DNA from: an uncultured Erysipelotrichaceae bacterium
Lineage (GTDB): Bacteria > Bacillota_I > Bacilli_A > RFN20 > CAG-826
Assembly (NCBI GenBank): GCA_902802905.1
Contig: CADCNT010000017.1
Coordinates: 186 to 64,185, forward strand
DNA: 64,000 nucleotides
Reading direction: 5' to 3'
The position numbers were made by a program, and so were the translations under genes. The notes beneath the pieces were generated by a model, which worked only from the letters and a program-made list of their open reading frames with translations, was not told the origin of the DNA and did not search any database. Of the stretch, positions 199-20,393 are shown piece after piece. Position 1 is the stretch's first letter. Each line of letters starts with the position of its first letter.

Positions 199-221
199 GA
201 AAACCCTACTATTAAGTAGGG
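199..221 (-). terminator. rho-independent terminator after membrane-protein gene
   Basis: Hairpin CCCTACT-atta-AGTAGGG (204-221), followed on the minus strand by a TTTTC run. Confidence 0.6.
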
Positions 222-232
222 CTTCAATTTTA

Positions 233-1483
233 TTAGTCTTTTTTCTTAAGATTATTCACATTACCAGCATCAATATCTGTCATATCACTTTCTTTTGTGG
301 ATAAGATTTCATTTTCTTCTGGTTCTATTGCTATTTTAAGAAAGCTGGAATTAATATCTTCAATTTTTTTAGGTGCTGATGTAGTTGATTGTGGTTTAGG
401 TGTTGGTTTATCTTTATCACCACTATAAGAATGCTCGGCTTTTTTAGATATACATTTATGGATGATGGAAAGAACTAAGCAAACCCCTCCAGTAGCGACA
501 ATCGCCATTAAGTAGATTGAATAATTAAATACTGCAGGAGCCCATAATTTAGTAAAGAAAATCATGAATAACATTAATCCACCACCAGTAAATACTGTTG
601 CTAATATAGATCTCACAATTAAAGAGATTCCTACATCTCTTGGTTCATCTTCATCTTTTCTCACTACTACTTCAAAAGCAGCAAGGATGAGTTTAGAGAA
701 TGTAGAAGCGCCCGCAAATAACAAAGTTAATCCAAGCAAAGCCATACTACCATTAAGAATAATTTCTGCAGCCGCAGTAGAACTACTAGCAGCAATTAAT
801 GGTTGGAATGTATAGGAAATAGCATTAAACATATTATATGTTCTACCTGCTGCCACAAAGATAACAGCGTAGAACGCAACACTTACTAGAAGCGATAAAA
901 AGCTAATAATCACCTTAAAAACTCTAGAAGCGACACTCTTATTGTCATCAGTGGAGATTCTTATAATCGCGCATATCAAAAATAAAGCGAACGCACATCC
1001 TAACATCGCAATTGAGCCATAGCCAATTGTTAAAGCTTGGACTTCATTTGAAGTGTGCCAAATCGCTAATAAAAATGCGACGTAAGAAACTACAGATGTA
1101 ACAAATTGTAAAATACTTTTAACTAAACTTGTGCCATTGTCTTTACCTGCTAAACCTTGGATGGTTTTAACTAGGATGATAATAAAATTTACAAAGCAAA
1201 TTATGCCAGTAACAGCGAGAACAACAAAAAAGCCGGCGTTTGGAACAAATCCATTAATAATCTCATCAATTGTTGGATTAGGAATTCCGCCTGTAAACAT
1301 CGCTTTTAAATATTCATAAGCTGTCATCACTAATGTTTCAGTTGTTATTTCACCAGTAATTCCAGCTGCGGTAATAGTCATTAGCTGAGGCAAGACAAAA
1401 GTAGCAAATGTACCAAGTACAAAAATAAGGATTAAAATGCTGGAAATAATATTAAATGCTTTACTTCTATATCTAAGGTCCAT
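233..1483 (-). CDS. polytopic integral membrane protein, unknown function, with hydrophilic Lys/Pro/Ser-rich C-terminal tail
   Basis: 416-aa ORF with many hydrophobic helices. I recognise no catalytic motif. Confidence 0.6.
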   Translation of the reverse strand: MDLRYRSKAFNIISSILILIFVLGTFATFVLPQLMTITAAGITGEITTETLVMTAYEYLKAMFTGGIPNPTIDEIINGFVPNAGFFVVLAVTGIICFVNFIIILVKTIQGLAGKDNGTSLVKSILQFVTSVVSYVAFLLAIWHTSNEVQALTIGYGSIAMLGCAFALFLICAIIRISTDDNKSVASRVFKVIISFLSLLVSVAFYAVIFVAAGRTYNMFNAISYTFQPLIAASSSTAAAEIILNGSMALLGLTLLFAGASTFSKLILAAFEVVVRKDEDEPRDVGISLIVRSILATVFTGGGLMLFMIFFTKLWAPAVFNYSIYLMAIVATGGVCLVLSIIHKCISKKAEHSYSGDKDKPTPKPQSTTSAPKKIEDINSSFLKIAIEPEENEILSTKESDMTDIDAGNVNNLKKKD

Positions 1484-3438: not shown

Positions 3439-3663
3439 TTAGTTTCTAGCAATGATGAATCTGTTATGGAAATTGCAAACATATTCAACACAATGTTTGT
3501 TATCATTAACAGGGTATTCATCTTGGACTTGTAAACTATAGAGAGCATGGTCCTCATAGTACTGAAACATATAGTTGATAGCTTCATTACGTGAGGCAAA
3601 CATTGACCTTTTAAGTTTAACAGGTCTACCTTGAACAATGGCTTCAAGGGTATAGTATTTCAT
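3439..3663 (-). CDS. small hypothetical protein (74 aa)
   Basis: ORF preceded by SD AGAGAGG about 9 nt upstream and by its own promoter. The overlapping alternative ORF 3423-3647 lacks an SD. Confidence 0.5.
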   Translation of the reverse strand: MKYYTLEAIVQGRPVKLKRSMFASRNEAINYMFQYYEDHALYSLQVQDEYPVNDNKHCVEYVCNFHNRFIIARN

Positions 3664-3741
3664 TTGTGTTACCTCTCTTTCTATTGCCTTTTAACGTCTT
3701 GCTTAGGACGGTGAATGAGGTATCACCAATGAAGAATACAT

Positions 3742-3769
3742 ATTGTAGTCTCTTTTTTAACAAAGTCAA
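3742..3769 (-). promoter_or_regulatory. sigma70-type promoter for the 74-aa ORF
   Basis: On the minus strand: TTGACT (3769-3764), 16-nt spacer, TACAAT (3747-3742). This predicts a leader of about 80 nt. Confidence 0.45.
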
Positions 3770-3787
3770 TAGATCGATAAAAATATT

Positions 3788-3807
3788 TTATCTACATAAG
3801 TAGATAA
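3788..3807. repeat. perfect 8-4-8 palindrome TTATCTAC-ATAA-GTAGATAA
   Basis: Read directly from the sequence. It lies about 20 nt upstream of the -35 of the 74-aa ORF promoter and downstream of the acyltransferase gene. Confidence 0.6.
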
Positions 3808-3854
3808 CTTTAATTTTTTTCTAAAAATCGTATTTTTTTATATCTTTTTTTAAT

Positions 3855-3878
3855 CAAAAAAAGCTCTTACCAAGAGCC
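3855..3878 (-). terminator. rho-independent terminator overlapping the acyltransferase stop codon
   Basis: Minus strand: GCTCTTGGTAAGAGC hairpin followed by TTTTTTT. Confidence 0.7.
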
Positions 3879-4745
3879 TTTATATCCAACACCATATTCT
3901 TTGGTGTAATAATCTATGCGTTTTGAGTTGTTATAAATCGGTGGATATATATTATCTTTAGGATTGATGCCCGCAAGCTCACATACACGAGCGTGTACAC
4001 GTTTAGTAAGATCTTCTTCTCTAGCGGTCATGTTTAATATTTCTTTATTAGGATAGATTGGTTCACCAATATTGATGGTGATTTTTGCAGGTTGCTTAAA
4101 AATCTTTTTTCTTATCCATGATGGCTTACGATAAGAATAGCCAATTGGAATTACTGGCTTATCAAATTGCGCCGCAAAGAAACATGCTCCTCTTTTAAAA
4201 GGTCTAATCGGAGCGTAATATTCCCACATACTTCCTTCCGCATATATTTGTAACCAACCATGGTCTTCTTTTAAAAGCTTTTCTACAGCTTTAAAATAAG
4301 TCATTGTGGCGCGATAGTTATTTTCCGGAATTGGAATACCGCCACTCATTCTAATTAGTTTTCCATTTTCTCCATTGATATTAGGTGCCCATACAAGAAC
4401 ATAAGGATGATAAGGTAAGACCACACTCATAAGAGTCATATAATCCCACATATGGACATGGTTAGAAACACTAACGACACCTTGTTTAATGACATCTTTA
4501 TAAATCTTTAGGTTTTTTCTTCCTTTTATTTTTAATCCAATTCTGATCCAATCAATCGGATAGGCAATAATAAAAGAAAAGAAGCGGAACCAGAATCTTT
4601 TAAACTTAAAAGACTTAGAGTTATCAACATAAGGATATTTATCATCAAAGATGATGCCTCTATTCTTTTTGACATGAAGATAATGAGAACCAGTATCTTC
4701 TGGATAAGGGAACTTATTAGTTTTTGGATCAAAATACATACACAA
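3867..4745 (-). CDS. lysophospholipid (1-acyl-sn-glycerol-3-phosphate) acyltransferase family protein
   Basis: HX4D acyltransferase motif (NHVHMWD) and a downstream EGS motif (YAEGSMWE). The start may be the Met 2 codons downstream (4739). Confidence 0.7.
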   Translation of the reverse strand: MCMYFDPKTNKFPYPEDTGSHYLHVKKNRGIIFDDKYPYVDNSKSFKFKRFWFRFFSFIIAYPIDWIRIGLKIKGRKNLKIYKDVIKQGVVSVSNHVHMWDYMTLMSVVLPYHPYVLVWAPNINGENGKLIRMSGGIPIPENNYRATMTYFKAVEKLLKEDHGWLQIYAEGSMWEYYAPIRPFKRGACFFAAQFDKPVIPIGYSYRKPSWIRKKIFKQPAKITINIGEPIYPNKEILNMTAREEDLTKRVHARVCELAGINPKDNIYPPIYNNSKRIDYYTKEYGVGYKGSW

Positions 4746-4785
4746 AAATTATGCCACAAAGGAGTAGTTTTAGAAAGAACTAAAA

Positions 4786-5535
4786 GTGATGTATAATTTT
4801 ATTAAGATGGATATTGAAATTGAAAGATTACAACATTTAATTGAATCCGCTTCCAAAATTGTCTTTTTTGGTGGAGCAGGTGTTTCCACTGAAAGTGGGA
4901 TTAAAGATTTTAGAAGTAAAGATGGATTATATAGACTACATTCTAAATATGGTAGACCATATGAAGAAATGTTATCTCATGACTACTTTATGTCACACAC
5001 CGATACATTCTATGAATTCTATAGGGAGTTCATGATTAATAAAAGCGCTAAGCCTAACGCTGCTCATAAGTTTTTAGCAGAGTTAGAAAAGAAAAAGAAT
5101 TTAGTGGTCATTACCCAAAACATTGACGGCCTCCACCAAATGGCGGGATCTAAAAATGTTTTAGAATTACATGGTTCTATTCACCGTAACTACTGTATGA
5201 GATGTCATGAATTCTTTGATTTAGATTTCATTGAATATGCTGAAGGAGTTCCTACTTGCCCACATTGTGGAGGAGTAGTTAAACCAGATGTTGTTTTATA
5301 TCAAGAAGGATTAGATTCCGCAGTTTTAGATGCATCTATCAGAGCGTTGTCTCAAGCCGATTTACTAATAGTTGCCGGAACTTCTTTATCCGTATATCCT
5401 GCTAGTGGATTAATAAGGTATTATGGCGGAGAAAATATCGTTGTCATCAACAAAGATAAACTCGATATTCACTTTGGAAATCTATTAGAAATTAATAAAC
5501 CTGTTGGAGAAGTATTTTCTCAAATCAAAATTTAA
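4786..5535 (+). CDS. cobB: NAD-dependent protein deacylase, Sir2 family
   Basis: GAGVSTESGIKDFRS NAD-binding motif, QNIDGLH, catalytic HG, and a CxxC...CxxC zinc module (CMRC...CPHCGG). The true start is probably the ATG at 4789. Confidence 0.9.
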   Translation: MMYNFIKMDIEIERLQHLIESASKIVFFGGAGVSTESGIKDFRSKDGLYRLHSKYGRPYEEMLSHDYFMSHTDTFYEFYREFMINKSAKPNAAHKFLAELEKKKNLVVITQNIDGLHQMAGSKNVLELHGSIHRNYCMRCHEFFDLDFIEYAEGVPTCPHCGGVVKPDVVLYQEGLDSAVLDASIRALSQADLLIVAGTSLSVYPASGLIRYYGGENIVVINKDKLDIHFGNLLEINKPVGEVFSQIKI

Positions 5536-10747: not shown

Positions 10748-12082
10748 TTACCTCTCTAGATATTTTTGCAGCTCAAATTCTGAAACTGTTGTGTGATAAT
10801 CTTTCCACTCTTTTTCTTTAGCTTCAATATATTTATAAAATAAATGATCTCCTAATACTTCTTTTAAGATTGAAGACTTCTTAAAGTCTTTGATTGCAGA
10901 ATGTAAAGTTGCTGGTAGGCATTCAATTTTTCTATCAGCGATTTCATCTTCGCTTAAAGAGAATAAGTTATCAGTGACTGGGGCCACCATATCCTTTTCT
11001 TTGATGTTTTTAATGCCGTCAAGTCCACAAGCAAGTATACCTGCTAAAGCAAGATAAGGGTTGGCACATGGGTCGACATTTCTAAGTTCAGTTCTAGTAG
11101 CCGCACCTCTAATAGCAGGAATTCTAATTAAAGAACTTCTGTTAGCATCACTCCAACAAGCGTAGATAGGTGCTTCATAGCCGCTAACTAATCTCTTATA
11201 AGAATTAACGATTGGGTTAGTTAATAAGCTTAATTCACGAGCGTGATTTAAAATACCGCTCACCCATTTTTTACACATAAGTGATAATTCCATATCTGCT
11301 TTTGGATCATAGAATAAGTCACCTTTGTCTTTATTGTATAAAGAACAATTAGTGTGCATGCCGTTACCTGCTTGTTTGTTTAAAGGCTTTGGCATAAAAG
11401 ATGCTAAGTAACCGTTTTTTCTAGCCACTACTTTTACTACTTGCTTAAATGTTTGCACACGGTCACATGCACTCACAACATCAGAATATTTGAAAGTGAT
11501 TTCATTTTGTCCAGGGCCAACTTCATGATGGGAGGCTTGTACTTCAAAACCCATGCTTTCAAGCATTAAAGAGATTTCTCTTCTAATGTTTTCTCCACCA
11601 TCAAATGGTGATAAATCAAAGTATGATGCTGCATCACTAATTTTAGTAGATGCACTTCCATCTGGATTTAATTTGAAAAGATAGAATTCTGGTTCAAAAC
11701 CAACATACATGGTTTCAATGCCTTCTTTGTTCATCTTTTCAACTTGTTTCTTCAAGATGTAACGTGGATCACCAACAAAAGGTTTCCCGTCAGGCATATA
11801 AACATCACAAATGAATCTTGCCACTCCTCCGATAGAAGAATCTTCAAATGGTAAAACTAAAAACGTATCAATATCTGGATGCAGATACATATCAGCTTCT
11901 TTGATTCTCACAAACCCTTCAATAGAAGAACCATCGAACATGATTTTATTATTTAAAGCATCATCTAATTTGGAAATTGGAATTTCCACAGCTTTAATAT
12001 CACCTAACATATCAGTGAATTGTAATCTGATATAAGAGATTTTCTTTTCTTCAATTATTTTTCTAATATCATTCTTGTTCAT
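10748..12082 (-). CDS. glnA: glutamine synthetase, type I
   Basis: 444 aa. Contains FDGSSIEGF, the HHEVGPGQNEI region, NGMHTN and the SYKRLVSGYEAP motifs characteristic of GSI. Confidence 0.95.
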   Translation of the reverse strand: MNKNDIRKIIEEKKISYIRLQFTDMLGDIKAVEIPISKLDDALNNKIMFDGSSIEGFVRIKEADMYLHPDIDTFLVLPFEDSSIGGVARFICDVYMPDGKPFVGDPRYILKKQVEKMNKEGIETMYVGFEPEFYLFKLNPDGSASTKISDAASYFDLSPFDGGENIRREISLMLESMGFEVQASHHEVGPGQNEITFKYSDVVSACDRVQTFKQVVKVVARKNGYLASFMPKPLNKQAGNGMHTNCSLYNKDKGDLFYDPKADMELSLMCKKWVSGILNHARELSLLTNPIVNSYKRLVSGYEAPIYACWSDANRSSLIRIPAIRGAATRTELRNVDPCANPYLALAGILACGLDGIKNIKEKDMVAPVTDNLFSLSEDEIADRKIECLPATLHSAIKDFKKSSILKEVLGDHLFYKYIEAKEKEWKDYHTTVSEFELQKYLER

Positions 12083-12136
12083 AAAATTTCCCCTTTAGAA
12101 AAACACGCAAATATTTTGCTCTTAGAAGAAAATAAT

Positions 12137-12170
12137 TGTCAACACTTTTATATGTAAAGTTTTGTTTACA
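12137..12170 (-). promoter_or_regulatory. candidate glnA promoter -35 (TTGACA) with adjacent GlnR/TnrA-like palindrome TGTAAA-N6-TTTACA
   Basis: The palindrome TGTAAAGTTTTGTTTACA at 12153-12170 sits just upstream of TTGACA (12142-12137, minus strand). It resembles TGTNA-N7-TNACA but is 1 nt longer. Confidence 0.4.
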
Positions 12171-12258
12171 TGCCTATTTTTCAAATCTTTTTAACAAAGT
12201 TAAATAATAATAGCAAACTATATGTTAATTTCACTAACTTTTTAATTTATGTCCCTTT

Positions 12259-12285
12259 AAAAAAATGGCCCCGATTCCGGAGCCA
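12259..12285 (-). terminator. rho-independent terminator of the RT-LRR gene
   Basis: Minus strand: TGGCTCCGGAATCGGGGCCA hairpin (one mismatch) followed by TTTTTTT, 18 nt after the stop codon. Confidence 0.7.
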
Positions 12286-12302
12286 CTTTTGTTTAATCAT
12301 TT

Positions 12303-15300
12303 TTAGAATGGTAAATCACTATCATCAACATCGAAGGAACCGAAACTGGTTTGAGTGTTCCTCACTCCTGGAGTTGGATTCATGAAGTAAGGGCAATACC
12401 TTAATGTTGCGTTGTGATCAAAGTTATCCACTACATCTGGTGGAAGCTTAGTGTTTTTGCAAGATAATGCAACTTTATTAGATCTAGTTCCAATAATCGC
12501 ATTGCAGTTATCTCTGCTATCAAAGACTGGATTACCTTTTTCTACTTCAATCTTTTCGATATTGAAGCACATCTCAAATACACGAGATTCAATATAAGTT
12601 ACGTTCTTTGGAATAAATACCTCTTTAACACCTTGATTGTTATAGAATCCAGGGAACGCTAGACGTTTAACAAAGTTAGGAATCTTACTTGCGTCTAAAC
12701 CAAACATTAAAGCGTCATTAACTGGATTAAAGATGATTCCGTCTTTTTCAACATACAAAGGATGATCTTTAGAAATCTTAACATCCACCAAGTTTTCTTT
12801 TTCCATCATTCCAAGTTGGCTTAAATCAGTTAAGGAAGCAGGAATAAATAAGTGCTCTATGTTATCTCTAGTTAACGCAGAAGCCTTAATAGAGGTAACT
12901 CCTTCAGGAATATTTGCGTCATCCGCTAAGTAAACTAGCTCTCTTCCATGGATATCAAATAACGCAGTATTCTCTTTGTTTGTTTTGAAGAACAAGTTGT
13001 CTTCATCAACAAAGATTTTATTTATCTTTGCATTATAAGCAAATTCAGGAGAGATATAGAATAAATTCTTGCCAATATAAAGTTCATCAATTGTAGAATA
13101 GGCAAAGCAATCGCCTAAAGATAACATGCTGTCTTTAAGAACAACTTTTTCAAAGTAGCGAGCATTATAACAACCTCTAGCAATAGAGGTATGTTCAGAT
13201 GGTAATAATGCTTTATTAGTTGTGTACAAGATGCCTTTGTTTTCTAAAGACATAAGGTAGCCATATTCAGACTTGAAGTACTTACTACCATTTTCAACTT
13301 CTATTTCTTTAGCGGTAAATTCATATAGTCCAGCTACTTCATTTACTGAAGCAGGAATACTCAATTTCGCGACGGAAATCCCGCGGAATGCATTTACAAG
13401 TATCTTTTCTAGGCCACTATTTAAGGTGATTTCTTTCACATTAACGCAGTCCGCAAAAGCACTTTCGCAGATATATTTTAAAGAATGCGGGAAAGATAAT
13501 TCGCTTAAACCAGTACATCCTTCAAATGCAGAATCAGATATAATCGCTAAAGATCCAGGGAAATTAATTTCTTTTAATTTCTCAACTTGGAAGAATGCAT
13601 ATTTAGCAATTTGCTCTACGCCTTGAGGGATGCGTGAATTTTTACAACCAAGTAGTAAAACTTTATGTCCATCTGGATCTAAATAAGTAACAATATCAGA
13701 GTCTTCATCACTAAAGACAGAATTGTTCTTGTCTACGTTAATATTTTCAATATCACAGCCTGCAAAAGCACCATTGGATAGTTGCTCTAAGGATGATGGT
13801 AAGTAAACATAATTAATAACTTTGTTATTAAAGAATGCTGCTCTGCCAATATATTTTAATCCTTCATTAAAGGCAGGAACTCTTAAGAATTCACAGCCGT
13901 AGAAAGCTTCATCTGCAATCTTTTCAAGTTCTGGAGGTAAGCTGATTCTTTCTAAAGAAGTACAGTTTTTAAAGCATGCGTTAGGAACAGTGTCGATTCT
14001 TGCATAAGAAACAACAGAATGTAAATTAGTGCAATTTTCAAATGCACTTGCACCAATTACTTCAATTGATTCAGGTAAGCCAATATCTCTTATCGCGCAA
14101 TTTTTAAATGCACTAGAGCCTATACTTTTTACTCCATTAGGAATGCCGACAATTTCCAAGTCCTTGCAGTTTAAGAAAGCTTCAACAGCAATCTTTTCCA
14201 CAGATTCCGGAACATCAACCTTTTGAAGTCCACTATTTGCGAAAGCATTATAAGGTATTTCTTTTATGTTTTTAGGCAAAGTAACTATTTTCAAATTAGT
14301 TGTGAAAGCAAAGACATTTTGGCCAAGCTTTTCAACATTCTCAGGCAATTCAATCTTTTCTAAAGCAGAACAACCTTCAAATGCACAGTTAGAAATACCT
14401 TTTAAGGTGTTTGGCAGAGAAATCTTTTTCAAACTTGTACAGTTTGCAAATGCAAACATTTCAATGTATTCAAGATAAGCAGGTAGTTCAATTTCTTCTA
14501 AAGAAGAACATCCCACAAATGCGCTGCTTGGAATACTATTCATCTCACTATTAATAATGACTTTCTTTAAAGATGTACATCTTGCAAATGCTCCAACCTC
14601 AAAATTCACACCATGAGGAATAATTATTTCTTCTAATAGTTCATTTCCACTAAAAGCAGAACGAGAGATAAATTCAACACTATTAGGAATTATTGTATTA
14701 GCACTTGCTAATAGCATTTGATTAGATTCACTATCAATAAGTGCGCTACAACCTTCTCTACTATCATAAACGCTATTATCTTTGGCAACTTCAATTTTCT
14801 TAAGATGAGAAAAGCAACTGCTTGTTAATATATTTGCCTTAATCTTAAATGTAGAAGGTATATATAGTTCCTCAACATTATCGCAGTCTTTAAATACAGC
14901 GCTATCCATTTTTAGGAGTGACTCTGGAAAGATAACCTTTTTAATTGCAGTGTTGGCAAATGCTTCTTCTCCTAAAGTAATTAAAGAGGTTGGCAGTTTG
15001 GCTTCACTTAAAGAAACACAGTTTTTAAATGCGTGCTTTTCAATAAAGTTAACAATGCCTAAATCTACTTCTTTAAAAGAAGTACAGCCAATAAATGCAC
15101 CCTCTTTTACTTCTCTTACTGTTTCAGGAAGAGCAACTTTCTTTAAAGAGTCGCAATACGCAAAAGCATATTTATAAATGGTTCTAACTCCTTGAGGAAT
15201 TGCGGAATTTTCACATCCTAAAATGAGTCTAGCTTTTTTCACTAAAATAAGAGCGTTACAGTCATCTTCACTGGAGTAAACCATGTTAAGTGGAGCGACT

Positions 15301-17582
15301 TTAATAGACTTAAGTACTTTAGGTAATCCTAGGAAGGCATCTTTACCAATTTGTTTGACCTTTTCAGGAATGTACAAGTCTTCGAAACTTGTACAGTGAG
15401 CAAAAGCGTATTGACCAATTTTGGTTACGCTTCCAGGAATCTCAAACACTAAGTTAGAGCAATTTTCAAAAGCGTGATTGCCAATCTTTGTAATCTTTCC
15501 TAAAACATTAACTTTCTTTAAGTTGGTACAGCCAACAAATAACGAATTAGGAATTTCAGTGATTCCCTCTGGTAGAGTGATTTCTCTTAAGGAGACACAG
15601 TTGGAGAAAGCACCATCTCCAAGTCTTGTAAGAGAAGATGGCAAATTAATCTTTTGTAACCATTTACACGACGCAAAGCAGTTATTTCCAATTGTTTCCA
15701 CTCCTTCTGGAATATCGATTGATTTAAGCATTTTGTTCTTAAATGGATAACTTAAAATTTGTTTTACACCTTTATCAACTATGTCTTTGAGTGTATAGAA
15801 CAAGACATCGTTATAATCAATAATTGATTTGTTGTCTTTAACATTCTTATAGACTTTGTTGTCTTTGCTAATTTCGATTTCCTCTAAACGTGGACAATCG
15901 GTAAATGCATCATCTGCTAATTCTAAAACAGAACTAGACACAACCGCTTTAGTTAAGGATGCACAGTTGGAGAAGGCATTTCTTTCGACTTTTAAAACAG
16001 TATCAGGTAAGACAGCTTCTTTCAGACGAATGCAACCAGCAAAAGCTTTGCTTCCAATTCTTTCAACTCTAGAAGTTGCTAGGTTGGTTTTTGCTAGTTT
16101 TTCATTGTTAGTAAATGCGGAAGCACCTATTTCTTTAACTGATTCAGGGAATGTCACTTCTTTTAGCTGACATCCTTCAAAAGCGGAATCGCCAATTATT
16201 TCTAATTCTTCTGGGAATCTAACTTCATCCAAGTAATAGCAGTACTTAAAGGTAAGGCTATTAATGGATTTGATATATGGAGGAAGTTCCACATAATCAA
16301 TATTTGTATAGGCGAAAGCAGCTTCACCAATATAACGTAAATACGTTGGTAACTTAATTTTGCTAATTCCGGTTCCGTAGAATGCTTTTTTGCCAATTAC
16401 TTTGAGCTTATCATTAAAAATCACTTCTTTAACGTTACTGTTAAAAGCAAAAGCGTCTTGACCGATGCTATCGACAAAGTATGGAATTTCTACACTTTCT
16501 TCTTTACCTAAATACTTCACGATTTCAATCGCATCATTAATGATAAATCCATCAGGGCAAATAACTTTCTTATGAATATTAATTTCAAATTGAGAAGAAT
16601 ACTGTTCAAAATCAGGTATTTCTTCACTGACGCGAGAAATAGATCTCTTGTCTAATTCTTTAGGGTTGAATCTATATGGTTCACCGTATATATTCATGTA
16701 CTTCTTTTGGAATCTCTTATAAGAAACTTCAGAGTTATACGCTAAATAGGCAACGCGAGATTTGATTTCATTATCCAGAGGATAGCAATGATCTTCATAA
16801 CTCTTTTGTTTAGCAATTAAGAAAAGCAAAAAAAGGATATAACGTTTAGAGATTGTAATCTTATTATTTACTTCATTTTCTTTAGAAAGGTTGAGTCCTA
16901 AATAAGAAATGGAGTTATGAGATTTGAAATCTAATTTAACTTTTCTAGTTTTCTTATCATTGATTTCAAGTTTATAAATAGCGAGTTGTTCTTTGATAAA
17001 TTCATAGAATTTATTTAATTCCTTATCATCTTCATATTCACTGGACAAAAGGATGTCATCACTATAACGGGAATAATGAAGAAGAGGATGTTTAGCTAAG
17101 TATTCAGAAATTGCTAAGTCAAACTTCTTCATGTAGAAATCACTAAGCATAGGAGAAGTGACAAAGCCGATAGATAAAGCACCTTTATAGAAAAGACCTT
17201 TAATTGCGTTTTTCCAATCATCATTAAAGTATTCACCGTATTGAGCGAAGAACGATTCTTCGGCGATACTTTCAAAGAAATGATGGATGTCTAATTTAAT
17301 AAAGCAGTTGGATTTAAGATGGCTTTGTAAAGCATCATAGCATCTAACGCCTTTATGATAAGCGAAAGAGAAGAGACTTCTTTGGGAAAAATTGTTTTTA
17401 AACTCTTCGGCAATTTGTTCATGCACTCTTCTTAAAGAAGCACCATAATCACCAAATTTGTTATAAGTAATGATTGTCCTTTCTTTTTTGTTTTTCTCTT
17501 TGATGACAAAAGGATAAACATACTTATCAGGATTTAAAATGTAATCCGCTAAGAGGCGGCTTAATCTATTGATATTTCCCAT
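12303..17582 (-). CDS. reverse transcriptase (retron/Abi-UG-like) fused to a giant BspA-type leucine-rich-repeat (LRR_5-like) array; 1759 aa
   Basis: RT motifs in aa 1-330: KERTIITY; AYHKGVRCYDALQSH; KLDIHHFFESI (motif A Asp); SIGFVTSPMLSDFYM (motif B); YSRYSDDILLSS (YxDD, nt 17066-17055); LEINDKKTR; ISYLGLNL. From about aa 340 there are roughly 50-60 units of the pattern IPxxVxxIGxxAFxxCxxLxxI. No signal peptide. SD GGGAGG lies 8 nt before the ATG. Confidence 0.85.
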   Translation of the reverse strand: MGNINRLSRLLADYILNPDKYVYPFVIKEKNKKERTIITYNKFGDYGASLRRVHEQIAEEFKNNFSQRSLFSFAYHKGVRCYDALQSHLKSNCFIKLDIHHFFESIAEESFFAQYGEYFNDDWKNAIKGLFYKGALSIGFVTSPMLSDFYMKKFDLAISEYLAKHPLLHYSRYSDDILLSSEYEDDKELNKFYEFIKEQLAIYKLEINDKKTRKVKLDFKSHNSISYLGLNLSKENEVNNKITISKRYILFLLFLIAKQKSYEDHCYPLDNEIKSRVAYLAYNSEVSYKRFQKKYMNIYGEPYRFNPKELDKRSISRVSEEIPDFEQYSSQFEINIHKKVICPDGFIINDAIEIVKYLGKEESVEIPYFVDSIGQDAFAFNSNVKEVIFNDKLKVIGKKAFYGTGISKIKLPTYLRYIGEAAFAYTNIDYVELPPYIKSINSLTFKYCYYLDEVRFPEELEIIGDSAFEGCQLKEVTFPESVKEIGASAFTNNEKLAKTNLATSRVERIGSKAFAGCIRLKEAVLPDTVLKVERNAFSNCASLTKAVVSSSVLELADDAFTDCPRLEEIEISKDNKVYKNVKDNKSIIDYNDVLFYTLKDIVDKGVKQILSYPFKNKMLKSIDIPEGVETIGNNCFASCKWLQKINLPSSLTRLGDGAFSNCVSLREITLPEGITEIPNSLFVGCTNLKKVNVLGKITKIGNHAFENCSNLVFEIPGSVTKIGQYAFAHCTSFEDLYIPEKVKQIGKDAFLGLPKVLKSIKVAPLNMVYSSEDDCNALILVKKARLILGCENSAIPQGVRTIYKYAFAYCDSLKKVALPETVREVKEGAFIGCTSFKEVDLGIVNFIEKHAFKNCVSLSEAKLPTSLITLGEEAFANTAIKKVIFPESLLKMDSAVFKDCDNVEELYIPSTFKIKANILTSSCFSHLKKIEVAKDNSVYDSREGCSALIDSESNQMLLASANTIIPNSVEFISRSAFSGNELLEEIIIPHGVNFEVGAFARCTSLKKVIINSEMNSIPSSAFVGCSSLEEIELPAYLEYIEMFAFANCTSLKKISLPNTLKGISNCAFEGCSALEKIELPENVEKLGQNVFAFTTNLKIVTLPKNIKEIPYNAFANSGLQKVDVPESVEKIAVEAFLNCKDLEIVGIPNGVKSIGSSAFKNCAIRDIGLPESIEVIGASAFENCTNLHSVVSYARIDTVPNACFKNCTSLERISLPPELEKIADEAFYGCEFLRVPAFNEGLKYIGRAAFFNNKVINYVYLPSSLEQLSNGAFAGCDIENINVDKNNSVFSDEDSDIVTYLDPDGHKVLLLGCKNSRIPQGVEQIAKYAFFQVEKLKEINFPGSLAIISDSAFEGCTGLSELSFPHSLKYICESAFADCVNVKEITLNSGLEKILVNAFRGISVAKLSIPASVNEVAGLYEFTAKEIEVENGSKYFKSEYGYLMSLENKGILYTTNKALLPSEHTSIARGCYNARYFEKVVLKDSMLSLGDCFAYSTIDELYIGKNLFYISPEFAYNAKINKIFVDEDNLFFKTNKENTALFDIHGRELVYLADDANIPEGVTSIKASALTRDNIEHLFIPASLTDLSQLGMMEKENLVDVKISKDHPLYVEKDGIIFNPVNDALMFGLDASKIPNFVKRLAFPGFYNNQGVKEVFIPKNVTYIESRVFEMCFNIEKIEVEKGNPVFDSRDNCNAIIGTRSNKVALSCKNTKLPPDVVDNFDHNATLRYCPYFMNPTPGVRNTQTSFGSFDVDDSDLPF

Positions 17583-17608
17583 AGGAAAGACCTCCCACTA
17601 AAGAAAAA

Positions 17609-17701
17609 GGTGGTTACTATGCTAACAAGAGCTTCCATCCAGCCCTTATTGAACCCAACAAGGAAGCTTACTGGACTATCAATTAAGATAAACTAACCAC
17701 C
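17609..17701 (-). ncRNA. candidate structured non-coding RNA / 5' leader of the RT-LRR gene (retron msr-msd-like geometry)
   Basis: Terminal 8-bp pairing GGTGGTTA (17701-17694, minus) with TAACCACC (17616-17609). It encloses a small hairpin UAUC-uuaauu-GAUA and a larger hairpin AGCUUCC...GGAAGCU (17668-17630) that has an inner CCUUGUUG-GGUU-CAAUAAGG alternative. A U-tract, SD and the RT ATG follow. Confidence 0.45.
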
Positions 17702-17707
17702 ACGATT

Positions 17708-17737
17708 ATTATATATTTATAATCGACAATAAGTTAA
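17708..17737 (-). promoter_or_regulatory. candidate sigma70 promoter driving the structured RNA and RT-LRR gene
   Basis: Minus strand: TTAACT (17737-17732), 18-nt spacer, TATAAT (17713-17708). The predicted +1 is about 17701, i.e. the first base of the outer stem. Confidence 0.35.
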
Positions 17738-18010
17738 GATTTTTTCCTAACTTTTTTATTTTAACAAAATTATTTATAATAATGGCATGTGTTTTAGAGA
17801 TAGATTCGGATATAGATTAATCACGATGAGGAGTAGTTTCCGAAAGTGGATCAATTGGAATTACTTTAATAAATAAAGTAACAAACGAAGAAACCAATAG
17901 AGCCAATATGAAGACAGGTATCTATGGATTTAAAATCAAAATGGGAGAATCCTATCAATTGATTATTACAAGTTCAAAAGCAGTTGGATCATATAAATTA
18001 AGGATTGGAA

Positions 18011-18448
18011 ATGTATAGTTTATTGTTTAAACAAATTGAATCAATAATTGACAGAGATATTCCATTAACTTCAAACTTAGCGAATATCTCTGCTTTATTA
18101 TTTAAGATGGAAAATGTGAATTGGGCAGGTTTTTATCTAACAGATAAAGATAGACTAGTTCTCGGTCCTTTCCAAGGCGAAGTAGCGTGCACTATTATTC
18201 CTCTAGGAAAAGGAGTATGCGGCATCTCAGCCTGTAAAAAAGAAACAATCATTGTAGATAATGTTCATAAATTTAAAGGACACATTGCCTGTTCTTCCAT
18301 TTCTAAAAGTGAGATCGTTGTGCCAATCGCAAAAAACGATAATTTGATTGGTGTCATTGATATTGATTCACCAATTTATTCTAGGTTCGCAAATATTGAA
18401 AAAGAGTTTTTAGAAAAGGTTGCTTCTTTGATAGAAGAATTATGTTAG
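18011..18448 (+). CDS. msrC: GAF-domain free methionine-(R)-sulfoxide reductase-like protein
   Basis: Motifs NWAGFY, LVLGPFQGEVAC, GKGVCG, GHIACSS, SEIVVPI and GVIDIDS are typical of the fRMsr/YebR family. The ATG at 18011 has an AAGGA SD; the ORF-track TTG at 18005 is less likely. Confidence 0.8.
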   Translation: MYSLLFKQIESIIDRDIPLTSNLANISALLFKMENVNWAGFYLTDKDRLVLGPFQGEVACTIIPLGKGVCGISACKKETIIVDNVHKFKGHIACSSISKSEIVVPIAKNDNLIGVIDIDSPIYSRFANIEKEFLEKVASLIEELC

Positions 18449-18867
18449 TAACTTTCAAAGTATTTGAAAAATTGCCTGAAGAAGCAAAATTTATTAGAAC
18501 CACTGTTTTTGTTGATGAACAAGGTTTTATTGACGAATTTGATGAGAGTGACAATAAGGCAATTCATGTCCTAATGATTTTAGACGATAAAGCTGTAGGT
18601 ACTTCTAGAGTAATTTATTCAAAAGAGCATAAAAGTTACGCAATCGGAAGATTTGCCGTCTTAAAAGAATATCGAAATCAAGGTTTAGGGAATATACTTT
18701 TGCAATTCACCGAAAAAGAAATAGTTAAAAGATTTGGCCATATCCAAATAGGTGTAAGCAGTCAAATGCAAGCAAGTGAATTCTACGCAAAAAACGGTTA
18801 TAACCGCACGGAGCCCACTTATTTTGATCAACACTGCCTCCATGTTTGGATGATTAAACAACTATAA
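18442..18867 (+). CDS. GNAT family N-acetyltransferase
   Basis: RNQGLGNILL acetyl-CoA binding motif (Q/RxxGxG/A). Length 141 aa. Overlaps the upstream gene by 7 nt. Confidence 0.75.
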   Translation: MLVTFKVFEKLPEEAKFIRTTVFVDEQGFIDEFDESDNKAIHVLMILDDKAVGTSRVIYSKEHKSYAIGRFAVLKEYRNQGLGNILLQFTEKEIVKRFGHIQIGVSSQMQASEFYAKNGYNRTEPTYFDQHCLHVWMIKQL

Positions 18868-18898
18868 AAATAGCGTCGTAGCTAACGACGTCTATTTT
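18866..18898. terminator. bidirectional terminator between convergent genes
   Basis: Hairpin TAGCGTCGT-agcta-ACGACGTCTA flanked by AAAAA and TTTT. Confidence 0.6.
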
Positions 18899-19562
18899 AT
18901 TTTTTAAGAATAAATTGTTGTCTAGAATTTTTAAGCACTTCTCCACTACCAGTCCAAAGGGCATCTTTGTACCATTGTGGGACTCTATTATCAATTTCTC
19001 TTTCTTTTTGTTTGAGAAGATCATCTTGCTCTAATATCTCGCCTTTTCTAGAAAGGAGTTCATCTTTCTTTTTCTTTCTAACAACAGCAAGAGCGATAGA
19101 ACCACCTAGAGCTAATATACCAACAACAGTAAGAACAACTGCGATTGGCACTTGTGCTGCAGGAAGTGGTAATACTTTAGCAAGAGTAAGAATACCTAAT
19201 GATAAGGTGATAATAGCGACACAAAGTAAGAGAATAGAAATTGGAGCAAATGGAGATTTATTCATAATTTTAAGAGTTCTATCCATTGCTTCTCTTTCTT
19301 TTTTGACTTGTTTCAAATCTTCTCTAACCGCGTTAAGTGAATCGAGTTCTTCACCAACATAAACATCGGCAAATCCAGTAATACGGAAATGCTTTTCCTT
19401 AGTTTTTTCGGTCGTGCCATCAGATTTCTTAGTAACAGTGGTTACATATTCATCCATAATGCCAATATCAAAATTAAAAGCACCATTTTCGACAAATTCA
19501 TTTAATCTTTTAGCAGCGTCGCTTGCATCTTTTGTAAGCATTGCGATAGGTTTTTTATCCAT
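18897..19562 (-). CDS. hypothetical membrane protein (two central TM helices, coiled-coil flanks)
   Basis: 221-aa ORF. Hydrophobic segments at PISILLLCVAIITLSLGILTLA and IAVVLTVVGILALGGSIALAVV. No recognised motif. Confidence 0.55.
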   Translation of the reverse strand: MDKKPIAMLTKDASDAAKRLNEFVENGAFNFDIGIMDEYVTTVTKKSDGTTEKTKEKHFRITGFADVYVGEELDSLNAVREDLKQVKKEREAMDRTLKIMNKSPFAPISILLLCVAIITLSLGILTLAKVLPLPAAQVPIAVVLTVVGILALGGSIALAVVRKKKKDELLSRKGEILEQDDLLKQKEREIDNRVPQWYKDALWTGSGEVLKNSRQQFILKK

Positions 19563-19598
19563 AATTGTTATTTTTTCCCCTACAATACTTTACCAAAA

Positions 19599-20393
19599 TT
19601 AGAAACTTATGCAATCTAAAGCAAGCATAACTACAAAACCAAAGATAAAAGACCAGACGCCTAAATGGCCATGTCCTTCACTGGTCATCTCTGGAATCAT
19701 TTCTTCCGCAACAACATAAATCATACAGCCTGCCGCAAAGGCTAAAGCCCAAGGCATAATCCCTTGAATTTGCATGGCTAAGAATAAACCAAGAATAGCG
19801 GCAATTGGTTCCACCGCTCCTGATAACATGCCAAATATAAAGGCTTTAGAAGAGGAACCAGTTTCGCTTTTAATTGGAAGCGACACCACGGCTCCTTCTG
19901 GAATGTTTTGTATGCCGATACCAACTGCGAGCAATAAAGCACCCATGAGTAAAGCAGCGTTATTTGGCTGCGAAAGAGCAACACCAAAAGCGATGCCAAC
20001 TGATAATCCTTCGGGAACATTGTGAATGGTAACAGCGATAAACATCTTAGATGTTTTACTCATTCTTTTGGTTGGTAGACCCTCATCTTCTCCTTCTTTA
20101 ACATGGAAGTGAGGAACAATCTTATCAATAAGCCATAAGAAGCCTGCGCCAAGCACTACTGAGATAACCACTATAGACCATGAAGGCATATAGGTTACAT
20201 TTGTCTCTAATGCCGGTTTTATTAGTGAAAAGAATGAAGCAGAAAACATCACCCCAGCGGCAAAACCAATAAATATTTTGTTTAACTTCGGTGAAATATC
20301 TTTCTTTCGAATAAAGAAAACAAATAACGCACCTAAAGTAGTACAAACAAATATAAGAGGAATTCCAATCAAAGGATAGACGTAATTAGGCAT
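19599..20393 (-). CDS. zupT: ZIP family divalent-metal transporter
   Basis: HNVPEGLSVG and QNIPEGAVV signature helices. 264 aa. Confidence 0.85.
   Translation of the reverse strand: MPNYVYPLIGIPLIFVCTTLGALFVFFIRKKDISPKLNKIFIGFAAGVMFSASFFSLIKPALETNVTYMPSWSIVVISVVLGAGFLWLIDKIVPHFHVKEGEDEGLPTKRMSKTSKMFIAVTIHNVPEGLSVGIAFGVALSQPNNAALLMGALLLAVGIGIQNIPEGAVVSLPIKSETGSSSKAFIFGMLSGAVEPIAAILGLFLAMQIQGIMPWALAFAAGCMIYVVAEEMIPEMTSEGHGHLGVWSFIFGFVVMLALDCISF

Follow-up and report, generated by a model that had tools for sequence, protein, structure and literature searches.

A retron-like reverse transcriptase fused to a giant leucine-rich repeat solenoid in an uncultured Erysipelotrichaceae bacterium

Results

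We analysed a stretch of 64,000 nucleotides (nt) from an uncultured Erysipelotrichaceae bacterium (assembly GCA_902802905.1, contig CADCNT010000017.1, positions 186 to 64,185 of the forward strand), referred to below as the window, and in particular one gene on its minus strand, 12303..17582, which had been predicted from the letters to encode a reverse transcriptase (RT) joined to a long array of leucine-rich repeats (LRRs). The open reading frame (ORF), 5,280 nt and 1,759 codons long, is indeed uninterrupted and encodes a protein of 1,759 amino acids (aa). Its ATG, at 17582, sits 8 nt on from a strong Shine-Dalgarno sequence, GGGAGG (17591..17596, minus strand, running from 17596 to 17591). 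Past the stop codon, where the original prediction had placed a terminator of the gene's own, lies an intrinsic-terminator-like hairpin with a U-run (12259..12286, minus strand); an 8-bp stem (12286-12279 / 12272-12265), which includes two G·U pairs, closes a 6-nt loop and is followed by the U-run at 12264-12259. A strict terminator scan did not list this hairpin among its sites. Downstream of the gene lie glnA and glmS, and upstream, in divergent orientation, genes for a GAF protein and a GNAT protein.

The N-terminal part of the protein (aa 1-300; 16683..17582, minus strand) is a retron-type RT domain, as seen from sequence and profile matches, alignments, a structure model and a fold search. 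Pfam RVT_1 matched aa 53-232 (E 4.6e-18), in line with the RT motifs read there earlier, and the catalytic motif YSDD occupies aa 173-176 (17066-17055); D98, Y173, D175 and D176 were invariant in 19 family representatives. In a profile search of the PDB, the window RT matched the Ec83 RT at 2e-29 and those of Kva2, Ec86 and Ec78 at ~1e-24, as against 1e-9 to 1e-10 for group II intron enzymes, 2e-8 for DRT2 and 5e-7 for the enzyme of a diversity-generating retroelement (DGR). Foldseek with the RT model also returned retron RTs as the top RT matches. The PADLOC retron RT models RT_I-B, II-A and III-A matched with E 1e-27 to 1e-30, and no single type-specific retron RT model scored strongly. Overall, retron RT models and structures match the window RT far better than group II intron, DGR, DRT and Abi enzymes do, which bears out the original assignment to the retron type rather than to group II introns or DGRs. 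In region X the window RT has ALQSH, with H88 invariant, and in region Y it has YLG, with G229 invariant; in the alignment to Ec83, ALQSH stands opposite NAKIH, and YLG or FLG opposite VTG. H and G are the most conserved residues of the retron motifs NAxxH and VTG (Mestre 2020; PMC7736814). By its sequence, the window RT falls within the lineage of retron and retron-like RTs.

Two features had escaped the original prediction: a retron non-coding RNA (ncRNA) upstream of the RT, with covarying a1 and a2 segments, and a C-terminal tip resembling that of SSB (single-stranded DNA-binding protein). The retron-like ncRNA (msr-msd; ~93 nt, 17609..17701, minus strand) was recognized by alignment of 14 loci, covariation and folding, and lies directly upstream of the RT, on the same strand, in every clade member aligned. 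In the window, a1 GGUGGUUA (17701-17694) is followed at once by a putative branching G (17693); next come the msr hairpin (17690-17687 / 17680-17677) and a variable stem-loop (~17675-17634), and a2 UAACCACC (17616-17609) closes the element, with a U-run right behind a2 (17604..17608, minus strand, from sequence and alignment). Across the loci, the elements run in the order -10 box, a1 (G)GTGGTTA, invariant G, 4-bp hairpin (around TTCTTAATTGA), CAGCAAGC motif, locus-specific stem-loop, a2 TAACCAC(C), U-run, Shine-Dalgarno sequence and ATG. The layout of msr-msd transcripts given by Mestre et al. matches this element (PMC7736814).

The a1 and a2 segments covary (GTGGTTA/TAACCAC, ATGGTTA/TAACCAT, TTGGTTA/TAACCAA, GGCGGTA/TACCGCC). 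In the 14-sequence alignment, 97% of the cells of the a1/a2 helix and the msr hairpin were paired, a level reached by 0 of 500 shuffles, while slid controls gave 31-59%. Compensatory changes were found in 9 of the 12 pairs (5 pairs of the 8-pair a1/a2 helix and all four pairs of the msr hairpin), and the G after a1 was invariant in 14/14 sequences. The minimum free energy fold of the window ncRNA is closed by a1/a2 (z = -3.3); homologous ncRNAs fold likewise, with a1/a2 as the closing helix (z -1.6 to -5.1). Every homologue has the central stem-loop, with a different sequence each time, and it is long in loci L002 and L003. A scan of GTDB with the ncRNA pattern returned three family loci and two chance matches without an RT downstream.

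A promoter-like site (-35 TTAACT, 18-nt spacer, -10 TATAAT; 17708..17737, minus strand) was found by a promoter scan, with the end of the -10 box ~6 nt ahead of a1. Its score, 10 of 12 matches, was the joint highest in the scan of 12100-18100, tied with two other sites, and a TATAAT-like box stands at equal distance from a1 in homologous loci. At the other end of the ncRNA, the U-run behind a2 is kept in 12/14 loci. As it directly follows the a1/a2 helix, the retron RNA may double as a leaky intrinsic terminator, and 17604..17608 may partially terminate or attenuate transcription on the way from the ncRNA into the RT mRNA.

The RT is joined to the repeats by a conserved linker (aa 301-345, consensus EIPxFExY..F..NIHxK; 16548..16682, minus strand; alignments and structure model), which ends, in the structure model, in a β-hairpin capping the first LRR. 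The rest of the protein up to aa 1721 (aa 346-1721; 12420..16547, minus strand) is an LRR_5 (BspA-type) solenoid according to Pfam, repeat analysis and the structure model. Pfam placed LRR_5 in 14 stretches of the window protein (E = 0). As a check for hidden domains, aa 341-1759 were cut into ten 142-aa slices and each was run against Pfam; LRR_5 was matched by every slice, in line with the BspA-type array that had been predicted to run to the end of the protein, with the signal fading after aa ~1477. Besides LRR_5, neither the Pfam slices nor the structure model with Foldseek showed any enzymatic or other domain in aa 341-1759. The repeats have a period of ~22-23 aa, and 'I.V.KDN.VY.S' cap segments divide the array into about eight modules. 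AlphaFold models of aa 1-900 and aa 1100-1759 (mean predicted local distance difference test score, pLDDT, 85.8 and 89.4, respectively; >90 over the LRR part) consist of an RT fold and then a continuous solenoid, and Foldseek with the repeat part found only LRR proteins, the best being crystal structures of BspA-type LRR_5 proteins (4fs7, 4gt6, 4h09).

Across the giant family, identity to the window protein is ~60% in the RT and 25-40% in the LRR part, and the array is collinear and almost gap-free up to aa ~1100. The combination of a collinear array with lower LRR identity suggests a conserved architecture that evolves faster than the RT. BspA-type repeats are regarded as surface adhesin modules, and the location of the array was assessed from hydropathy. 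The window protein has no transmembrane (TM)-like segment, the highest Kyte-Doolittle mean being 1.14 over 19 aa, and no signal-peptide-like hydrophobic stretch in the hydropathy profile; its N-terminus is hydrophilic and is the RT domain itself. The lack of a signal peptide and TM helix noted earlier thus stands, and the fused LRR array is predicted, by hydropathy and domain evidence, to be cytoplasmic.

The solenoid is followed by a poorly conserved, predicted-disordered tail (aa 1722-1749; 12336..12419, minus strand; pLDDT and alignment) and by an acidic C-terminal tip, FDVDDSDLPF (aa 1750-1759; 12306..12335, minus strand; sequence and family alignment), together ~38 aa. The pLDDT of the tail is 27-37, so that the tip comes after 28 residues with values below 40; conservation in the tail is low and gaps are frequent, and the final residues are conserved again. 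The tip resembles that at the C-terminus of SSB from Gram-positive bacteria (…DISDDDLPF). Within the family, the consensus closes with DDLPF (in motif form, D-D-[LF]-P-F), at least 90% of the 19 representatives have the final F, and the tips of relatives read FDVSDDDLPF, LDSDDDLPF, FDSDDDLPF, GDDDLPF, GDDLPF, DDFPF, DDMPF and EELPF. The SSB C-terminal tail (IDISDDDLPF in Gram-positive bacteria, DDDIPF in E. coli) is the docking site for many SSB-interacting proteins (PMC5531588; PMC5872125), and our literature search found no paper linking a retron RT with an SSB tail. From this likeness, we consider it an even chance that the tip engages host SSB partners.

We counted the tip among the 150 nearest RT relatives according to protein length. 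It was present in 15/18 giant-family representatives and in five of the six RT fusions of 800-1,499 aa, in none of the 64 relatives of 550-799 aa, and in 1/61 of those under 550 aa. The last, P0003, is a natural LRR-less variant in which an RT linker like aa 301-345 is joined straight to the tail, ending ...SFDEVDDPPF; P0173, its mate in a 90%-identity cluster, is a full-length form of 1,611 aa. The C-termini read from proteins of unfused systems (described below) carried no tip. In locus L019, ~5 kb from the RT-LRR gene, a separate LRR_5 protein (12545-13729, minus strand; 394 aa or more, as it reaches the end of the contig) has the C-terminus ...DDDGDIGGYEDDDFPF (...YEDDDFPF), which suggests that an LRR_5 protein with the tip may exist without an RT.

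Homologues were collected by an exhaustive phmmer search of 1.84 billion representatives, with clusters at 50% identity. The 19 best matches, the window protein included, are 1,603-1,919 aa long with the RT N-terminal, and their RTs are 50-100% identical to that of the window. At least 19 clusters (18 besides the window's own) share the RT-LRR architecture, and the sequence of the RT/LRR junction is conserved in the family alignments; the two halves are, thus, not always separate genes, nor is the fusion a chimeric assembly, two outcomes that the original prediction had named as refuting it. Five species-representative metagenome-assembled genomes (MAGs) of GTDB, found by an alignment-based search, encode RT-LRR as a single uninterrupted ORF; a pattern search of GTDB genomes built from the single protein had returned no match. 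By label, these five are Erysipelotrichaceae or 'Bacilli bacterium', and rumen samples were the source of several. A protein identical to that of the window was present on three contigs, and the sole name given to these proteins in the databases is 'hypothetical protein'. The family is limited to uncultured rumen and gut Erysipelotrichaceae/Bacilli; the window glnA is 86-90% identical to glnA of RUG and RGIG rumen MAGs.

In the six loci examined (the window and L016-L020), the fused gene has different neighbours each time, which suggests a unit made up of the ncRNA and one ORF. Among ~24 related genomes in which the sequence extends for 5 kb or more upstream of glnA, none had an RT or LRR homologue at this locus, supporting the view of an accessory cassette inserted between housekeeping genes. 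In the closest relative, RUG042, a cardiolipin-synthase-like gene occupies the interval from the ZIP gene to glnA, and DNA homology to the RUG042 glnA locus resumes at window position 12243, just beyond the terminator. The same interval measures 7.4 kb in the window (12244-19608) and 1.7 kb in RUG042 (L038, 5114-6794), and in the window it holds genes for a 221-aa protein with a weak LPXTG match, GNAT and GAF proteins and the retron. The fused gene and glnA of ruminal_MAG_116 lie on separate contigs (L016 and L096).

Two observations were made upstream of retron promoters. A contig otherwise 99.97% identical to the window (L035) carries 77 extra nt at window ~17833 (L035 2677-2749), upstream of the retron promoter, and has a 102-aa ORF on the opposite strand there; the matching stretch of the window is not open. 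In L001, a 388-aa ORF (211-1377, minus strand) lies on the opposite strand ~200 nt upstream of the retron promoter. Judged by eye, it looks transposase-like and the nearby DNA seems GC-richer than the retron, and the contig may have a mobile-element junction or a chimera near this ORF.

LRR_5 also accompanies relatives of the window RT outside the giant family. P0084 (1,103 aa) consists of the RT, an unassigned stretch, LRR_5 and the tip, and P0053 (1,661 aa) of the RT and LRR_5; both are independent RT+LRR_5 fusions. In unfused systems, LRR_5 is found on a separate protein. In L002 and L003, an LRR_5 protein comes first, then the ncRNA, an RT (295-301 aa long), a helicase and a further unassigned protein; the helicase (570 aa) matches the PADLOC model of an RT-associated NERD-helicase, and the loci are surrounded by McrBC, TIR and DEAD-helicase genes. 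The LRR_5 protein of L002 (8169-9776; 535 aa) also has a SWIM zinc finger. In seven other loci (L005-L010 and L021), an LRR_5 protein (401 aa) and a MazG-like protein come ahead of the ncRNA, which is followed by an RT (337 aa) and by a protein of 213 aa in which two hydrophobic segments read as TM helices. McrBC, TIR, NADAR and TIR-LRR_5 genes near some loci give them a defence flavour. The idea of a conserved upstream RNA in a defence-island setting, raised in the original prediction, held for the RNA in the 14 loci and, as regards the setting, for some unfused relatives and not for the window gene.

A specific kinship between the fused LRR and the LRR_5 partners of unfused systems was considered and rejected, since similarity was merely generic (23-36%). 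The best stretch was 46% identical over 41 residues, and a neighbouring surface LRR protein scored equally. This suggests an association at the level of the domain and not of one orthologous protein. At that level, the LRR link is specific to the RT clade and recurrent.

Several further proteins were noted around these loci. Two LRR_5 proteins adjoin fused genes, one a TIR_2+LRR_5 protein of 416 aa (L018, 15279-16529, minus strand) and one a protein of 623 aa whose C-terminal part has no assigned domain (L016, 7811-9682), and in L017 a true lipoprotein-type LRR_5 surface protein adjoins the fused gene. PADLOC gave no matches on LRR proteins adjoining retron loci. In the unfused locus L011, a 533-aa protein without a Pfam match (3516-5117) stands upstream of the ncRNA-RT, where other relatives have LRR_5; a ParB/DUF262-like DGNRR motif was seen in it by eye, and a NERD-helicase-like gene starts downstream. 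In P0057, P0065 and about 60 other proteins of 640-690 aa, an N-terminal domain of ~340 aa without a Pfam match comes first and a related RT forms the C-terminal part; these proteins have no SSB-like tip.

Discussion

The window system is very probably a real, unclassified type of retron with one ncRNA and one giant gene. As far as our literature search tells, an RT-LRR retron is undescribed: an LRR partner has no mention in the retron and RT classification papers searched, among them Mestre 2020, a 2021 FEMS review, the 2022 UG/Abi paper and a 2026 SPIRE survey, and a prior mention elsewhere is possible. This agrees with the earlier statement that no known retron or UG/Abi class has an LRR partner. 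In Mestre 2020, where 'LRR' and 'leucine' are absent, every retron type is an RT-msDNA module (msDNA, multicopy single-stranded DNA) with a recognisable protein or fused domain, mostly an enzyme, a DNA-binding or a membrane protein, and types I-XIII are defined by ATPase-HNH/Toprim, NDT, PRTase, 2TM, cold-shock, HTH, DUF3800, protease, HEPN, IHF/VHL, TIR, SWIM and other classes (PMC7736814). Since the types are defined by their effectors, the window system falls outside all 13. No PADLOC effector model matches the window protein outside the RT, the LRR part being uncovered.

By analogy with known retrons, the RT would start from the 2'-OH of the G after a1 (17693), make a short msDNA copy of the stem-loop region and, like the RTs of solved retron complexes, remain attached to its product. 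The LRR solenoid would be a cytoplasmic protein-binding sensor or scaffold. In the inspected relatives, the tip is found where a dedicated effector (NERD-type helicase, MazG-like or two-TM protein) is absent, on which ground we propose a coupling to SSB partners: the SSB-like tip might dock the msDNA-RT particle onto host proteins that bind the SSB tail, such as nucleases, helicases and replication-restart proteins, and this docking would replace the dedicated toxin gene of other retrons. What sets it off could be the binding of a phage protein to the LRR or, in the manner of Eco2 and Eco8, the action of phage nucleases or SSB on msDNA; infection would then alter the exposure or occupancy of the tip, and replication, restart or repair would be disturbed in the infected cell. 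There is precedent for a single-protein retron in Eco2 (PMC12916289), for triggering by phage SSB in Eco8 (PMC13402713) and for reliance on a host enzyme in the need of retrons for RNase H1 (PMC8989520). We think it fairly probable that the system is defensive. For the whole account, an unclassified self-contained retron with an LRR, docking by the tip and a probable anti-phage role, we estimate a probability of roughly 0.55.

A number of observations weigh against this account. The ncRNA, ~93 nt in the window and 72-140 nt in the family, is short for a retron, and an Rfam scan of 11500-19000 at E ≤ 1 gave no ncRNA family match, its only returns being one terminator-like sRNA match and one chance miRNA match. 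With the NCBIfam model retron_St85_RT, the window RT scored 110 bits, below the cut-off of 235, and H and G alone are kept of the motifs NAxxH and VTG, the other positions being replaced. The match to the SSB tip spans only 4-6 residues, and three members of the giant family end otherwise (DFFF, GLSF, FRF). The window gene lies among housekeeping genes, outside any defence island, and viral contigs of IMG/VR held no close relative, only distant RTs at 27-30% identity, so that there is no link to mobile elements either. Finally, not every copy is intact. In L001 the junction of RT and LRR coincides exactly with an in-frame TGA (2805-2810), at which place the window reads AGT, and in L014 and L015 the frame needs a +1 shift in an A8 run within the first LRR (L014 ~1573-1581); these interruptions could reflect decay, phase variation, recoding or sequencing error.

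A bolder form of the account can be imagined, in which msDNA particle, LRR sensor and SSB-tail mimic together make an effector-less immune receptor, like a plant nucleotide-binding LRR receptor (NLR) with an integrated decoy; we regard this as speculative and rather doubtful. The mimic would serve as bait for phage proteins directed at host SSB or, after unmasking on infection, would hijack the host SSB interactome and stop replication, a scenario that we hold equally tentatively. If it were true, cytoplasmic LRR_5, also found fused to TIR, SWIM and the tip, would be a general pattern-recognition domain of Bacillota immunity.

It is also possible, though unlikely in our view, that the tip only serves msDNA maturation, bringing in host RNase H or exonucleases for trimming of the RNA-DNA hybrid, with the LRR as the true effector or adaptor that sequesters, for example, an essential host protein or an unlinked toxin once msDNA is damaged. 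Such recruitment would fit with the binding of the SSB tail by RNase HI and ExoI of E. coli and with the trimming of some msDNAs by ExoVII. LRR_5 partners, moreover, occur in systems without the tip, which argues for a role of the LRR independent of it. However, the small stand-alone RTs of the clade, which would need equal maturation, have no tip; no conserved unlinked partner was visible in the data examined; and we know of no toxin-like activity of LRR_5. The dependence of retron function on host RNase H1 (PMC8989520) favours this explanation.

We consider it quite improbable that the system is a non-immune retroelement of DNA metabolism or regulation, in which the tip ties the msDNA-RT particle to replication or repair and the LRR acts as a scaffold. 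The housekeeping context in the window, the restriction of the family to one host lineage and the absence of a recognisable toxin speak for such a role. The patchy presence and differing genomic position, however, are typical of accessory defence genes, the unfused relatives sit in defence islands beside NERD-type helicase, two-TM, TIR and McrBC genes, and, to our knowledge, every retron tested so far acts in phage defence.

An artefact or dead gene (a chimeric assembly, a decaying fusion, or a surface BspA-type adhesin placed after an RT) is suggested by the TGA of L001, the A8 frameshift of L014 and L015 and the lipoprotein-type neighbour in L017. This explanation is highly improbable: intact ORFs of the same length and order occur in 19 clusters as well as in five MAGs, the catalytic residues do not vary, the junction and the C-terminal tip are conserved, and there is no signal peptide or TM segment. 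The conservation data refute it for the window gene and for the whole family. The possibility that the RT belongs to a DGR mutagenising the LRR array, to which an RT adjoining a repeat-rich binding protein with faster-evolving repeats might point, is virtually negligible, given the far stronger match to the retron RT (2e-29 against 5e-7), the retron architecture of the upstream RNA and the absence of a template-/variable-repeat pair between the upstream region and the ORF with adenine mismatches allowed (0 candidates at ≤4 non-A mismatches in 40 nt; no blastn match >18 nt).

In the favoured account, then, a family of at least 19 clusters has the usual retron partner replaced by a non-enzymatic LRR solenoid and a likely copy of the SSB docking tag. 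If these systems are anti-phage, a different logic would be needed, one of recruiting, titrating or baiting host or phage DNA-metabolism proteins. This would be the first link of retrons with LRRs, the sensor fold of animal and plant innate immunity, and would place BspA-type LRR_5 modules in use inside the cell. The ~93-nt ncRNA with a single gene is also a small candidate for retron-based DNA production, and uncultured rumen and gut Erysipelotrichaceae appear to be a source of unclassified retrons.

The separate parts of the system resemble parts of several known ones. NLRs and the Avs/bNACHT receptors likewise use an LRR solenoid as the likely ligand-binding module, but NLR/STAND receptors have a NACHT, NB-ARC or STAND NTPase, and Pfam and the structure models showed none in the window protein; as this defining NTPase is missing, the window protein is not an NLR and the 'NLR-style' label of the original prediction has to be dropped. 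Surface BspA-type proteins share the LRR_5 repeats and fold, and since no export signal or anchor was found here, the window protein is not one of them. The bacterial SSB tail is likewise a disordered linker followed by D-(I/V)-x-D-D-D-L-P-F (compare DISDDDLPF of SaSsbA), whereas the window protein has no OB fold, and partner binding, known for SSB, is here predicted from sequence likeness. Retron-Eco8, which is triggered by phage SSB and whose RT is structurally related, also ties the msDNA particle to SSB biology (PMC13402713); there, however, the msDNA is bound by the SSB of the phage and the effector is a nuclease of the OLD family, while here the SSB-tail mimic is on the retron protein and there is no nuclease.

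Defence RTs with repeats are found in other classes too. UG/Abi class 1 RTs have a C-terminal solenoid, the HEAT-like alphaRep (PMC9226505), but their repeats are alpha-helical, their RTs belong to another lineage and they lack an msr-msd-type RNA with a1/a2; Abi-P2, DRT2, DRT9 and UG15 match the window RT far more weakly than retron RTs do. Type XIII retrons (Mx162, Mx65, Sa163) likewise pair a retron with repeat proteins, SWIM and HEAT/ARM, and the SWIM zinc finger of the L002 LRR_5 protein matches the PADLOC model SWIM_XIII weakly (6.6e-5). The type XIII repeats, however, are alpha-helical and on separate proteins, whereas the LRR is fused here, the type XIII ncRNA is long compared with ~93 nt, and the RT_XIII model gave only 40 bits on the window RT.

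Retron-Eco2 (Ec67, type I-C), a single-protein retron, and types XI and XII have the same plan as the window system, the ncRNA being followed by one ORF with an RT and a C-terminal domain and by no second gene (PMC12916289; Mestre 2020). The fused domain is Toprim, a protease or TIR in those retrons and a ~1,370-aa non-enzymatic LRR_5 solenoid with an SSB-like tip here, and the window protein is three times larger. The RTs are related in fold and sequence, the window RT scoring only 50-60 bits with the PADLOC models of these types. By analogy, it is these single-polypeptide retrons (Eco2/type I-C, XI and XII) that the window system would most resemble in the way it works.

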